Origin: Escherichia coli 042
Lineage (GTDB): Bacteria; Pseudomonadota; Gammaproteobacteria; Enterobacterales; Enterobacteriaceae
DNA: 64,000 nucleotides
Direction: 5' to 3' (one strand)
Assembly (NCBI RefSeq): GCF_000027125.1
Contig: NC_017626.1
Shown here: piece after piece, positions 19,937 through 26,605 of the stretch
How the letters are laid out: each line of letters begins with the position of its first letter
Numbering within the stretch: the first letter of the stretch is position 1
Made by a program: the position numbers and the translations under genes
The notes under the pieces: model-generated
Seen by the model: the letters and a program-made list of their open reading frames with translations, nothing else
Told to the model about the DNA's origin: nothing
Databases searched by the model: none

Positions 19937-20554
19937 ATGATTAAGGTGTATGGCGTACCCGGATGGGGCTCTACAATCAGTGAGCTGATGCTAACACTGG
20001 CTGATATTCCTTATCAGTTCGTTGATGTCAGTGGTTTTGACCACGAGGGAACCTCACGCGAGTTATTGAAAACCCTGAACCCGTTGTGTCAGATTCCGAC
20101 ACTGGCGCTGGAAAATGACGAGATTATGACGGAGACAGCGGCGATTGCATTGATGGTTCTCGATCGTCGCCCGGACCTTGCGCCACCGGTTGGGCGCGCC
20201 GAACGTCAGCAGTTTCAACGGCTATTGGTCTGGCTGGTTGCTAATGTCTATCCAACATTCACTTTCGCCGATTACCCTGAGCGTTGGGCTCCTGACGCAC
20301 CCGAACAGTTAAAGAATAATGTTATTGAATATCGTAAATCGCTTTATATCTGGCTGAATTCACAATTGACCGCTGAACCTTATGCCTTTGGCGAGCAACT
20401 AACGCTGGTGGACTGTTATCTCTGCACCATGCGCACATGGGGGCCGGGGCATGAATGGTTTCACGATAATGCGCAGAATATCAGCGCGATCGCTGAAGCT
20501 GTATGTCAGTTACCGAAATTACAAGAAGTATTAAAAAGGAATGTCATTATTTAA
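19937..20554 (+). CDS. yncG: Glutathione S-transferase-like protein
   Basis: 205 aa with GST N- and C-terminal domain pattern. Confidence 0.85.
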   Translation: MIKVYGVPGWGSTISELMLTLADIPYQFVDVSGFDHEGTSRELLKTLNPLCQIPTLALENDEIMTETAAIALMVLDRRPDLAPPVGRAERQQFQRLLVWLVANVYPTFTFADYPERWAPDAPEQLKNNVIEYRKSLYIWLNSQLTAEPYAFGEQLTLVDCYLCTMRTWGPGHEWFHDNAQNISAIAEAVCQLPKLQEVLKRNVII

Positions 20555-21093
20555 CAATAATGCCGGAGGTTAATGTTAATGAATCACTGGCGTAATTAAC
20601 TGGATATCCATTTGTTTGCTATGAATAGTAATTAAAGTTGGTACAACTATTTATATGATTGATGTAATTTCGTTTTTTATATGAAATATCAATTTAATAT
20701 AATCCGAAAATAAAACATCTTTTCGCATGTAGAGAAACATGTCGATATGATAGTGCAGTGCAGATCATGTCATCAGGGTAGGGCGGTAGCGTATTTAATC
20801 AGGGAAAGATTACGCAACGCTGCTTTTTTGTATTGAACGATTCGCATTTTATGTTTAAAAATTGCGATATTCCTTATTTCCTGAAGCTGTTTTTATTGCT
20901 TATACATGATCAAATACTCCTTACATAATTAAGGAGAACAAAATGGAACTTAATACACGCCAACAATTTGTATTACTTAAATAGACCAGTGAAGGTACGC
21001 ATCAGAACATCCGGTGAAGTGATTAATATTTCGTTGAATATTTCTCCCGATTTTTGAAACCTGCTGCTGTAGAAATTCTGAACAGGAGGAATT

Positions 21094-21378
21094 ATGCCTT
21101 TAGCAGCCAAACTCACCGACAAAGGCACCCAGCACGACGGTTATTACGAGACCGTCATCACCGCCGGGTCATCCACCGTCTTTATCGATGGTCTTCCCGC
21201 AGCCCGTCAGGGAGATCCGCTGACGCCGCATGCTAAACCGAAGCATCCCCCTCATCCCCGTAAAATCGCCAGAGGTTCTTCAACCGTCTTTATTGACGGC
21301 CTGCCCGCCGCCAGAAGCGGTGATGCTGTTGACTGCGGCGGCGTGGTTATTGGTGGCGGTACGGTAAATATAGGCTGA
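21094..21378 (+). CDS. PAAR-repeat protein (T6SS spike-tip)
   Basis: 94 aa; duplicated SSTVFIDGLPAAR(Q/S)GD motif typical of PAAR; strong AGGAGG RBS; 18 nt upstream of vgrG. Confidence 0.75.
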   Translation: MPLAAKLTDKGTQHDGYYETVITAGSSTVFIDGLPAARQGDPLTPHAKPKHPPHPRKIARGSSTVFIDGLPAARSGDAVDCGGVVIGGGTVNIG

Positions 21379-21396
21379 TATGTCTGAGAGGTATTT

Positions 21397-23802
21397 ATGT
21401 CCTTAAAAGGTCTTCGCTTTACGCTGGAGGTTGACGGCCAGGAGCCGGACACCTTTGCAGTGGTGAATTTCAGGTTAATCCAGAACCAGTCATATCCGTT
21501 TGTGATGAGTGTGGATGTTGCCAGCGACTCTTTTATGCAGACGGCGGAGATGCTGCTGGAGAAGAAGGCGACACTGACCATCTGGCAGGGCGCAGTGGCG
21601 CAGCGTTATGTCACCGGCGTGGTGGCGGGTTTTGGCATGCAGGAGAATAACGGCTGGCAGATGCGTTATCACCTGCGTATTGAGCCGCCGTTATGGCGGT
21701 GCGGGCTGCGGCAGAACTTTCGTATCTTCCAGCAGCAGGATATCCGGACGATATCGGCCACGTTACTGAACGAGAACGGCGTCACGGAGTGGACGCCGCT
21801 GTTTTATGAGGACCATCCGGCGCGGGAGTTCTGTGTCCAGTACGGGGAGTCGGACCTGGCGTTTCTGTCCCGGCTGTGGGCGGAGGAGGGTCTTTTCTTC
21901 TTTGAGCGGTTTGCGGCGGACAGTCCGGAGCAGAAGCTGACGCTGTGCGACGATGTGGCGGGGCTGTCACAGGCGGGGGAGTTTCCGTTTAACCCGGACA
22001 CATCGGCAGGTGCGGAGACGGAGTGTGTCAGTATGTTCCGTTATGAGGCGCATGTCCGCCCGTCATCGGTGCAGAGCCAGGATTACACCTTTAAGGTGCC
22101 GGACTGGCCGGGGATGTATGAGCAGCAGGGTGAGAACCTGAACGGACAGCTGGAGCAGTATGAGATATTTGATTATCCGGGAAGGTACAAGGATGAACAG
22201 CACGGCAAGGATTTCACGCTGTACCAGATGGAGAGCCTGCGCAGTGATGCGGAAAAGGCCACAGGGCAGAGTAATTCGCCGAAGCTGTGGCCGGGAACGC
22301 GGTTTATGCTGACGGGGCATCCGCAGAAGATGCTGAACCGTGAATGGCAGGTGGTACAGAGCATACTGTCAGGAAACCAGCCGCAGGCGCTGCACGGCAG
22401 CCAGGGAAAGGGAACCACGCTGGGCAATCAGTTAGAGGTGATACCGGCGGACCGGACGTGGCGTCCACGGCTGCAAAACAAACCGAAGGTGGACGGGCCA
22501 CAGAGCGCCATCGTCACCGGTCCTGCGGGAGAGGAAATCTTCTGCGATGAACATGGACGGGTACGGGTGAAGTTCCACTGGGACCGTTATCACGGGATGA
22601 CGGAGGCGAGTTCATGCTGGGTGCGGGTATCGCAGGCGTGGGCGGGGCCGGGGTTCGGTAACCTGGCGATACCACGGGTGGGTCAGGAGGTGATAGTGGA
22701 CTTCCTGAACGGCGACCCGGACCAGCCGATAATCATGGGGCGGACGTACCATGAGGACAACCGTTCGCCGGGCGACCTGCCGGGAACGAAGACGCAGATG
22801 ACCATCCGGTCAAAAACCTATAAAGGAAGCGGATTTAACGAGCTGCGGTTTGAAGACGCCACCAGTAATGAGCAGGTGTATATCCATGCCCAGAAGAACA
22901 TGGATACGGAGGTGCTCAACGACCGGACAACGGATGTGAAACATGACCATACGGAAACCATCGGGAACGACCAGAAGATAACGGTGGTGAAGGGGCAGAC
23001 GGTTCAGGTCGGGACCAGAAAAGAAGGGGGCCACGACCAGAGTATCACGGTGGCGAACGACCGGTGCATCACGGTACGTAATGACCAGACGCTGCAGGTG
23101 ACGAATGACCGGACGGTGAGCGTGAGTAATGATGACGGCCTGTACGTCAGAAATGACCGTAAAGTGACGGTGGAAGGGAAGCAGGAGCATAAGACGACGG
23201 GGAACCATATCAGTCTGGTGGAGGGAAAGCACAGCCTGGTGGTGAAGGGGGACCTGGCGAGGAAGGTGAGTGGCGCGCTGGGGATAAAGGTGGACGGGGA
23301 TATCGTGCTGGAGAGCAGCAGCCGGATAAGCCTGAAGGTGAGTGGCTCGTTTGTGGTCATCCATTCAGGGGGCGTGGACATCGTCGGGCCGAAAATCAAT
23401 CTCAATAGCGGCGGTAGTCCGGGGACGCCGGTGCCGGCGCTGCAACCGGCGGTGCTGAAGACACTGGGGGATGAGAAGAGTGGTGATGGCAGTGATTCCG
23501 GAGAAGAAAATGAAGACTCTGGAGGGAACTGCGTGACCGGAAGTGGTGGTGATGATCGAGGTGACGATGAGGATGAACCTGAAAAATATACTCTCCAGTT
23601 CCATTTTACAGACGATGACGGGATACCGTATTCAGAAACCCGCTACATTGCCTTCTTTGAGGATGGCACGCAGACCCGCGGAGAAACGGATGAAGAGGGG
23701 TATACAGAGCGTTTTTTTGTATCTAGCAAACATGAAATTAAAGTGAAGTTGTTATTTGCGAATGATGATTTTCTCTCAATGGAAGGACACTATGGACGAT
23801 AA
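21397..23802 (+). CDS. vgrG: Type VI secretion spike protein VgrG with acidic linker and C-terminal extension domain
   Basis: 801 aa; N-terminus MSLKGLRFTLEVDGQEPDTFAVVNFRL…IWQG…RIFQ matches VgrG gp27/gp5 core; C-terminal repeat-rich beta-helix; Gly/Asp/Glu-rich linker then ~70 aa terminal domain. Confidence 0.85.
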   Translation: MSLKGLRFTLEVDGQEPDTFAVVNFRLIQNQSYPFVMSVDVASDSFMQTAEMLLEKKATLTIWQGAVAQRYVTGVVAGFGMQENNGWQMRYHLRIEPPLWRCGLRQNFRIFQQQDIRTISATLLNENGVTEWTPLFYEDHPAREFCVQYGESDLAFLSRLWAEEGLFFFERFAADSPEQKLTLCDDVAGLSQAGEFPFNPDTSAGAETECVSMFRYEAHVRPSSVQSQDYTFKVPDWPGMYEQQGENLNGQLEQYEIFDYPGRYKDEQHGKDFTLYQMESLRSDAEKATGQSNSPKLWPGTRFMLTGHPQKMLNREWQVVQSILSGNQPQALHGSQGKGTTLGNQLEVIPADRTWRPRLQNKPKVDGPQSAIVTGPAGEEIFCDEHGRVRVKFHWDRYHGMTEASSCWVRVSQAWAGPGFGNLAIPRVGQEVIVDFLNGDPDQPIIMGRTYHEDNRSPGDLPGTKTQMTIRSKTYKGSGFNELRFEDATSNEQVYIHAQKNMDTEVLNDRTTDVKHDHTETIGNDQKITVVKGQTVQVGTRKEGGHDQSITVANDRCITVRNDQTLQVTNDRTVSVSNDDGLYVRNDRKVTVEGKQEHKTTGNHISLVEGKHSLVVKGDLARKVSGALGIKVDGDIVLESSSRISLKVSGSFVVIHSGGVDIVGPKINLNSGGSPGTPVPALQPAVLKTLGDEKSGDGSDSGEENEDSGGNCVTGSGGDDRGDDEDEPEKYTLQFHFTDDDGIPYSETRYIAFFEDGTQTRGETDEEGYTERFFVSSKHEIKVKLLFANDDFLSMEGHYGR

Positions 23803-24583
23803 TAATCAAACTTCTGGACAACCAAAGCCAGAGCCAGAAGAATGTGTGAAAGAGCAAAAAATAACTGATCATTTTAAAATAATGATTGATAAGGCTCGTA
23901 AGGCACAAAAGTTGGTTTTGATAAAAAGAGCAGATGATCTTTTGAGATGGGGAGCACAGGAGGAATATGATTTCAGTAAGATCTTTGGTGTTAAAGGAAA
24001 TAAGGAGGTTAATATAAGAAAATATGGACATAATACAGGTAGGCGCATGAATGCTAGATTTCTTATGATGGATGGTGTGAGAAGATTAATGATTATAGCT
24101 AATGATTTAACAATGAGCAGTTTTATAAATTATACAGGTTGTAATGAATTTGCAGCATTCGTCAGCCCAAGTAAGGATATGCCCTATATAATTAACATAG
24201 GCGCAAAATTTGAGTATAGAGATGGCAAAAAAAATCCAGTAACGGGAAAGGATTCTCATGTTGCTACTTTATGTCATGAAATGTCTCATATTCAGTGGTA
24301 TTATGGGGATAATAAAAAAGGTGGTATGTGGTCACAGGATTATACAACTACTGATAAATATTCAACGTGCAAAGAGGATGAAGTTTCATATGACGAACAT
24401 ATCCGTATTGCAACTAAACTGATCTCTAAACAAAAAGATCAAATATTCGAGAATGCATATAACATAGAAAGATATTTTGAAATAAGATTAATTGAAAGTG
24501 AGATAGACTCGATTAATGATGAAATATTAAGCAATTCAGTTAAGAAAAAAATAGCGGAATTAGAAAAAGCACTTCTCCATTAA
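23792..24583 (+). CDS. Candidate T6SS cargo effector with HExxH zinc-metallopeptidase-like motif
   Basis: 264 aa from ATG at 23792, overlapping the vgrG stop by 11 nt; GGAAGGA RBS; HEMSH at 24275-24289; ~30% GC by eye; no family recognised. Confidence 0.5.
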   Translation: MDDNNQTSGQPKPEPEECVKEQKITDHFKIMIDKARKAQKLVLIKRADDLLRWGAQEEYDFSKIFGVKGNKEVNIRKYGHNTGRRMNARFLMMDGVRRLMIIANDLTMSSFINYTGCNEFAAFVSPSKDMPYIINIGAKFEYRDGKKNPVTGKDSHVATLCHEMSHIQWYYGDNKKGGMWSQDYTTTDKYSTCKEDEVSYDEHIRIATKLISKQKDQIFENAYNIERYFEIRLIESEIDSINDEILSNSVKKKIAELEKALLH

Positions 24584-24606
24584 CTAATAAGTCGAGAAAT
24601 ATATTA

Positions 24607-25428
24607 ATGCTGCAAGCTATAAAAAAAATCATAATAATGACAATCGTAAATATTATATTTTTCTATTCCTTTCAATCGACTGCGGATGAAATGGTTTTAA
24701 TAAAAAAATACGGGTTTGGGCTTGAGAGAGATATCAAAGGAAGGCCATTAATTTATCCTATCGAAAATTATGATGAGTGTAAGAAAAAATGCAATCATAT
24801 GAATTATATAGCGGATGTCAATGCTCAATTAGCTATGAGTAAAAAAAATAACAGGATTTTTGCTAACATAACCTTTACTAACAATAGCTCTACCACGTAT
24901 TTTTTTTCTAAATATTACCTACCTATGAAAGTAAAAGATGGAAAAGGAGATGAATATGATGCGATATGCAAAAAACCATTCAGAATCAACTCTGGGAATA
25001 TCACGTTGGACTACTTAGGTGGTTCATGTCCTTTTGAAATTAATACGAATCCTGAACGGTGGAATACTATTAAACCAGGTCGTAGTTTTTTGTTGAGTAT
25101 AACCTTAAATGATATGTATGCCTTTATACCAGGAGATAATTATTATTTTATAAAATCATCTGGCTATAAATTTGTTAATGACAAGTGGTTTACACTCAAA
25201 TCAATCAATAATATTTTTCTTTATTTTTTAAATTTAAAAATTAATTGTGCTGATGATTTTTTTGATATTAATAATTTTACTACATGTGATAATTTGTTAT
25301 TAGATGAAAAAAAACACTTTTTTATTAATCAGTTATGGGCAATTGAGGATGAAAAAAATTCTATTTACGTCACCCCTGATGAAATTTCTATAAGTATAGA
25401 CGGCGATAACTTAAAGTTGCCATATTAG
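24607..25428 (+). CDS. Candidate cognate immunity protein (periplasmic, signal-peptide-bearing)
   Basis: 273 aa, AT-rich; N-terminal hydrophobic segment IIIMTIVNIIFFYSFQSTA; several Cys; directly downstream of the effector candidate. Confidence 0.45.
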   Translation: MLQAIKKIIIMTIVNIIFFYSFQSTADEMVLIKKYGFGLERDIKGRPLIYPIENYDECKKKCNHMNYIADVNAQLAMSKKNNRIFANITFTNNSSTTYFFSKYYLPMKVKDGKGDEYDAICKKPFRINSGNITLDYLGGSCPFEINTNPERWNTIKPGRSFLLSITLNDMYAFIPGDNYYFIKSSGYKFVNDKWFTLKSINNIFLYFLNLKINCADDFFDINNFTTCDNLLLDEKKHFFINQLWAIEDEKNSIYVTPDEISISIDGDNLKLPY

Positions 25429-25447
25429 GAATCTGTGAAAGAACAAG

Positions 25448-25936
25448 GTGCGCCGCTTTTTTGTACTAAATAATTCGCATTTTAGTCACGGCAGAGAAGA
25501 AATCCATCTTCATATTGTTTGCGATGTCCCTGATGAACTTATTGATTTCACGTTTGAATGGAAAGGTCAGAAGAAATTATGCGTGGCAGTCTCCTTTTGG
25601 TCAATAATAGCAGAACAAAAGAAAGAGCCAGAAATGACGGTCAGATATTATATCAGTTCTGCTGATTTAACCGCAAAAAAGTTCGCCACAGCGATACGAA
25701 ATCACTGGCACGTGGAGAATAAGCTGCACTGGCGTCTGGACGTGGTAATGAACGAAGACGACTGCAAAATAAGAAGAGGAAACGCCGCAGAATTATTTTC
25801 AGGGATACGGCACATCGCTATTAATATTTTAACGAATGATAAGGTATTCAAGGCAGGGTTAAGACGCAAGATGCGAAAAGCAGCTATGGACAGAGACTAC
25901 CTCGCGTCAGTCCTTGCGGGGAGCGGGCTTTCGTAA
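25448..25936 (+). pseudogene. ISAs1-family (H-repeat-associated) transposase, C-terminal fragment
   Basis: C-terminal ~140 aa resemble H-repeat-associated proteins ([30 protein letters not shown]…); N-terminal two-thirds absent. Confidence 0.7.
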
Positions 25937-26044
25937 TCTTGCCCTGGCGATCGAATAGCGCAGATGACGGTGCTCTAAATTTGAATCTAATAAGCCGGTG
26001 TTATTTTTCATCCACTATTAAAATCTTGACACAACGAGGCAACA

Positions 26045-26605
26045 ATGAAAAAAAGCAAAAAAATTAAAACAATGAACCATCAAAATAATAGCGGGATACA
26101 AAATCAACCAGACTATCACATCGAAATAGAAAGAAAAAATATGGTAAGATTGCTTGATGAACGTATTGATAAAGTTTACGGTTCATTGCTAGGACCAATG
26201 AAAAAGAAAAATATAGATAAAATACGTCATTTTACACTTGATGTAATGGTGTTTATTCTTGACACGAACCCTCGTGTTTGTAATAAATTATCCAGGGAAA
26301 TAATATCTTTAGCGCAAAATACCTTCATTGAAAAAAACGTTAATTTTTCAACTTTTAATAATGAACAGCATAGAATAAGGGAGTATATGAATGAAGGTGG
26401 TGGAATACGATGGTTTACATGGGATAACCCCGAGATATCTTTTGTTCGTGCATCTTTTGGCCTTTTTGTCAAAATGGAAACAAAAGGTGATCATGAACAT
26501 ACACTAAGTGACACATTTCTTCAGATTGTTGAGTGTGTTAATTTAAATATAGGACTTATTGCAAAAGATGAACTGGTAAAAATCATCAATAAACACTTTA
26601 TGTAA
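26045..26605 (+). CDS. Hypothetical protein (AT-rich accessory ORF, no recognisable domain)
   Basis: 186 aa ORF with GAGG RBS; low GC; no TM segments. Confidence 0.4.
   Translation: MKKSKKIKTMNHQNNSGIQNQPDYHIEIERKNMVRLLDERIDKVYGSLLGPMKKKNIDKIRHFTLDVMVFILDTNPRVCNKLSREIISLAQNTFIEKNVNFSTFNNEQHRIREYMNEGGGIRWFTWDNPEISFVRASFGLFVKMETKGDHEHTLSDTFLQIVECVNLNIGLIAKDELVKIINKHFM

Follow-up and report, generated by a model that had tools for sequence, protein, structure and literature searches.

The T6SS cargos closest to the locus considered here come from several sources. The pair formed by Tle1 and EAEC VgrG1 (6SJL; Flaugnatti et al., as cited in PMC6899460) consists of a cargo encoded after vgrG and a spike with a TTR-like docking domain. 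The C-terminal metallopeptidase of VgrG2b from P. aeruginosa (DUF4157; 6H56) is a T6SS-delivered zinc peptidase with an HExxH motif, which is toxic only in the periplasm, has a small downstream immunity gene and uses Glu983 as an extra ligand (PMC6899460). Two proteins of E. coli are nearer still. The M35-peptidase of strain BCE049 (FQU84_13640/FQU84_RS13640, WP_000342575.1), a predicted T6SS effector, inhibits the growth of E. coli when it carries a PelB leader and not when it is cytoplasmic, and deletion of its whole locus left virulence and survival in mice unchanged (PMC7904677). The second, M35^PAR of E. coli PAR (AKO63_2955), is toxic from the periplasm-targeting vector pET22b, is neutralised by the downstream gene, and was bound in a pull-down by a C-terminal, DUF2345-containing fragment of VgrG; the same paper equates it with the VgrG2b toxin domain (PMC10673891). 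We equate AKO63_2955 with the RefSeq gene PAR RS15260 by locus architecture, with no accession match.

The stretch of DNA analysed here (the window) comprises 64,000 nucleotides of E. coli 042. It contains a gene for a protein of 263 amino acids (23792..24583, plus strand), which differs from the BCE049 protein by the single substitution N242D (262/263 residues identical, 99.6%). The two loci also share their position between yncG and yddH, the order PAAR-vgrG-effector and an 11-nt overlap of the last two genes. We consider it very probable that the product is an antibacterial T6SS cargo, namely a divergent zinc metalloendopeptidase of the aspzincin fold that acts on a target in the envelope and against which the downstream gene provides immunity.

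The island between yncG and yddH consists of four intact genes, PAAR-vgrG-effector-immunity, all on the plus strand and with no adaptor gene between them. The first (21094..21378) is labelled PAAR in RefSeq and matches NCBIfam NF033420 (T6SS_PAAR_dom) over its curated cut-off (E 1.4e-46). The 801-residue product of vgrG (tssI; 21397..23802) matches TIGR03361 (E 5e-180) and has the Pfam domains Phage_GPD, Phage_base_V and Gp5_trimer_C, DUF2345 giving no match in the Pfam search; to the spike core are added an extended gp5-like beta-helix, an acidic Gly/Asp/Glu linker and a C-terminal domain. The latter (about residues 729-787; 23581..23757, plus strand) is TTR-like and is a putative docking site for the effector. 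The best structural match of its model is EAEC VgrG1 in the Tle1 complex, to which it is also tied by a sequence bridge via L006, and the same domain of about 65 residues occurs on two classes of VgrG.

Direct reading of the sequence places the effector open reading frame at ATG 23792, with 263 codons and its end at 24583. The 3' end of vgrG reads ...MEGHYGR-TAA with the stop codon at 23800-23802, and the effector start overlaps the vgrG stop by 11 nt (23792..23802, plus strand; ATGGACGATAA). A Shine-Dalgarno-like GGAAGGA lies within the last vgrG codons (23781..23787, plus strand), 4 nt 5' of the effector ATG. We prefer this ATG because it is the RefSeq start and because the Met1 column is invariant across 19 homologues; a mechanically called TTG start at 23756 was rejected on the same grounds, and an antisense open reading frame (23738-24031) was set aside in favour of the effector frame. 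The encoded N-terminus is hydrophilic and disordered, and the protein has no Sec signal. Lysine is the most frequent residue (10.6%), and the GC content of the frame is 0.324, as against 0.581 in the vgrG core and 0.487 in the 64-kb window. An earlier, sequence-only reading of this DNA had already noted the start 11 nt inside vgrG, the embedded Shine-Dalgarno, the HEMSH motif at nt 24275-24289 and the lysine-rich, low-GC composition, all of which we recover. It had numbered the motif residues H174, E175 and H178, which fits the TTG start at 23756 and contradicts the ATG it had itself chosen; counted from ATG 23792 they are H162, E163 and H166.

The junction recurs among the relatives. In nine loci spanning the effector family, the effector gene always directly follows a vgrG with the TTR-like C-terminal domain, and a Shine-Dalgarno-like motif, mostly GGAGG-like, stands in the last vgrG codons 4-7 nt before the effector ATG. 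Eight of these loci have an overlap of 8-14 nt between effector start and vgrG stop, and the ninth (L012) has a 1-nt gap. No terminator-like site was found between vgrG and the effector gene in the window, and promoter and terminator scans of 20500-26100 gave no excess over shuffled sequence. RNA folding around the start detected no structure beyond that of shuffles (z = 0.09), so that occlusion of the Shine-Dalgarno is unsupported. The arrangement agrees with the proposal that expression of the effector is tied to that of the spike, and we infer that its translation is coupled to vgrG.

The gene directly 3' of the effector (24607..25428, plus strand) encodes a putative immunity protein of 273 residues, of which about the first 26 form a Sec-type signal peptide; it also has conserved cysteines. 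It is 41% identical to its counterpart at locus L004 and has no significant match in Pfam and none in NCBIfam. A homologue stands directly 3' of the effector in all nine loci (phmmer E 4e-19 to 3e-71), and seven of these, those whose called start looks complete, show a signal peptide. These comparisons reveal a single cassette, made up of TTR-like VgrG tail, effector and immunity gene, that is kept together on two classes of VgrG. In the window the pairing of effector and immunity protein would follow the PAR homologue, for which neutralisation is known.

The cassette might be a silent orphan in E. coli 042, with intact genes and either no compatible T6SS or no expression. The island stands alone between yncG and yddH, and its end is marked by an ISAs1-family transposase remnant (25448..25936, plus strand; NF033564, E 7.5e-34, C-terminal part only; a RefSeq pseudogene). 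No core T6SS gene occurs within about 3,700-45,500 of the window, by annotation taken via near-identical RefSeq records, and promoter-like sites across 20500-26100 occur at the frequency seen in shuffles. Against this, the PAAR, vgrG, effector and immunity genes have all been kept intact, the four-gene cassette is found at an identity of at least 99% in 435 records, and the window VgrG is 90% identical to the L004 VgrG, whose gene adjoins tssB, tssC and hcp, so that the species does possess a T6SS compatible with it. We regard silence as unlikely.

The effector sequence had earlier been called otherwise unrecognisable, a description that does not hold: RefSeq annotation already labels the protein M35, a near-identical copy has been published, and the aspzincin family and fold are recognisable in it. 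Aspzincin_M35 (PF14521) is the best Pfam family; the window protein alone reaches E 0.005, which is short of significance, while among the 19 relatives 14 match it at E<=0.1 and two at E<=0.001, the best at 2.3e-6. NCBIfam gave no match with the effector, and a phmmer search of the PDB returned E values of about 1. Single-sequence searches are nearly blind here; it took a profile of the family, together with a modelled structure, to make the assignment. With the profile built on the effector family, E is 1.8e-6 for AsaP1 and 1.3e-3 for GfMEP, and in a Foldseek search the AF2 model (pLDDT 89.9) matches 1ge6 with probability 1.00 and a TM-score of 0.75 on the target. As modelled, the three-dimensional fold of the effector is that of the aspzincins.

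This kinship bears on a second alternative, in which the protein is a protease toxin directed at the host, comparable to AsaP1 from Aeromonas salmonicida or to the M35 proteases that serve fungi in virulence, and damages animal cells and not bacteria once delivered or released. By profile and by fold, the nearest proteins of known structure are indeed AsaP1, which has been called a 'toxic extracellular endopeptidase', and M35 enzymes of fungi, and the effector gene is common in extraintestinal isolates (urine, mastitis, poultry). However, a homologue of the signal-peptide-bearing partner accompanies it at nine out of nine loci, a pattern characteristic of antibacterial effector/immunity pairs, and E. 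coli is killed by the 99.6%-identical protein of BCE049 when this is in the periplasm (PMC7904677). The unchanged survival of mice after deletion of the BCE049 locus (PMC7904677) also speaks against a host target, and is neutral as to an antibacterial role. We hold an anti-host function to be highly improbable. The earlier proposal of a zinc-dependent hydrolase acting on the cell envelope is strengthened by the aspzincin fold, a candidate third zinc ligand in Asp183, the signal peptide of the partner and the toxicity of the BCE049 copy only in the periplasm.

The active site is predicted to be built around HEMSH (His162, Glu163 and His166; 24275..24289, plus strand), the sole HExxH in the protein, at the end of a predicted helix (156-166). 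By itself the motif is weak evidence, because about 0.015 occurrences are expected by chance in a protein of this composition and because HExxH is found in 3 of 72 long stop-free stretches of the window. More telling are the residues around it: C161, H162, E163, H166 and D183 are invariant in the 19 homologues, the most distant of which are about 30% identical, and H162, E163 and H166 align with H117, E118 and H121 of GfMEP, whose zinc ligands are those given in PMC3268031. The third zinc ligand could not be placed by eye in the sequence-only reading. We propose Asp183 (codon 24338..24340, plus strand), which aligns with Asp130 of GfMEP and Asp306 of AsaP1 and keeps a Ser/Thr at -2, with S181-x-D183 corresponding to the T-x-D of GTxD; this candidate comes from the alignment. 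Short-branch homologues have the Asp nine residues after the second His, as in GfMEP; in the window effector it lies 17 residues after it because of an 8-residue insertion. The family consensus around this ligand is GGM-x-[ST]-x-D or LN-[ST]-x-D, and the Tyr-Gly at D+3/+4 in the aspzincin GTxDxxYG is not conserved in the family. On these alignments the protein would bind zinc and act as a catalyst.

Downstream, NAYNIERYF (residues 221-229; 24452..24478, plus strand) appears to be a second-shell helix motif corresponding to NADNHEYF of the aspzincins. It aligns with NADNH of AsaP1 and GfMEP, and eight of its nine residues are invariant in the 19 homologues, I225 being nearly so. Asp154 of GfMEP hydrogen-bonds His117 (PMC3268031), and its position is taken by Tyr223 in the effector. 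That Asp154 and Glu157 of GfMEP form a pocket for Lys was unconfirmed, the same paper describing Asp154 in its contact with His117, and we claim no Lys specificity for the effector on that account. Glu226 within this motif offers a different third ligand in place of Asp183, which would make the protein gluzincin-like, as VgrG2b is with Glu983. Glu226 is itself invariant among the 19 homologues, and the PAR homologue has been likened to the VgrG2b toxin domain (PMC10673891), whose ligand is Glu983 (PMC6899460). We rejected kinship with VgrG2b, as the effector lacks the combination of similarity to the VgrG2b C-terminal domain and its Glu ligand; the Salmonella arizonae effector SARI_02727 (PMC12992299), in turn, is VgrG2b-like and falls outside the effector family. 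Coordination by Glu226 seems to us very improbable, and Asp183 is the ligand we retain. That the protein is a non-proteolytic zinc binder serving T6SS metal acquisition, a secreted zincophore of the kind that Candida has in Pra1, a protein of this same fold, is scarcely credible.

The favoured reading of an antibacterial peptidase can be laid out as a sequence of steps. The effector and vgrG would be transcribed on one mRNA, and the effector translated via the Shine-Dalgarno and start codon inside the end of vgrG. It would then bind to the TTR-like domain at the C-terminus of its VgrG, in the manner of Tle1 on EAEC VgrG1, and the loaded spike would carry it into an adjacent Gram-negative bacterium; we infer both that the effector touches the TTR-like domain directly and that a T6SS delivers it in E. 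coli 042. In the periplasm of the target, zinc held by His162, His166 and Asp183, with Glu163 as the catalytic base, would allow the effector to cut a peptide bond of an envelope component. The producer would be protected by the product of 24607-25428, as a Sec-exported periplasmic protein.

Two further ideas, which together we think unlikely, concern the specificity and control of the enzyme. The effector clade could be a distinct class of periplasmic T6SS peptidases that cut a Lys- or meso-DAP-containing envelope linkage, such as the Lpp-peptidoglycan tether or the peptidoglycan stem peptide. Such cleavage would draw on the preference of aspzincins for Lys at P1'. Next to the zinc site, the invariant Cys161 could act as a redox or activation switch that operates only in the oxidising periplasm.

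As a biological object the effector is an ordinary and already-known T6SS effector, real and not new, because RefSeq already names it M35 and a 99.6%-identical copy was tested. It is also widespread: about 12% of the complete genomes of E. coli carry its gene (644 of 5426); with the M35 label in place and a near-identical toxin reported, little is added on identity. What the analysis does yield is a precise hypothesis for the catalytic residues, H162, E163, H166 and D183. Our literature searches found no match joining aspzincin with T6SS, or peptidase M35 with VgrG, and no biochemical data for members of the effector clade.

Set against the known systems, the locus is closest to that of BCE049. 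The latter differs in having a second vgrG cassette upstream, and in its assembly three homopolymer-length differences break up the downstream immunity gene. The aspzincins of MEROPS M35, GfMEP (1G12/1GE6), AsaP1 (2X3A) and deuterolysin (1EB6), are only 16-21% identical to the effector. Unlike them, it has neither signal peptide nor propeptide, carries the 8-residue insertion between His166 and Asp183, misses the YG of GTxDxxYG, has Tyr223 in place of Asp154 and an invariant Cys161 beside His162, and would be delivered by a T6SS with an immunity protein, so that Lys specificity, as in the peptidyl-Lys preference of the Lys-N subgroup, is not to be assumed for it. Tle1 is a phospholipase, whereas the window effector is a predicted peptidase for which docking on the TTR-like domain is proposed by analogy. 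The PAR effector belongs to the same family (30% identity, pairwise E 2e-33, the same invariant residues), and likewise follows a vgrG with the same C-terminal domain, with an 8-nt overlap, and precedes a homologous immunity gene. It differs in its DUF2345-class VgrG, its location in the metV T6SS cluster and the frameshift that divides its vgrG into two open reading frames; in the protein itself, the helical tail at the C-terminus (232-263) is missing and a long insertion precedes the catalytic core. Taken together, the comparisons show that this effector family is aspzincin and not of the VgrG2b type that one paper (PMC10673891) implies.

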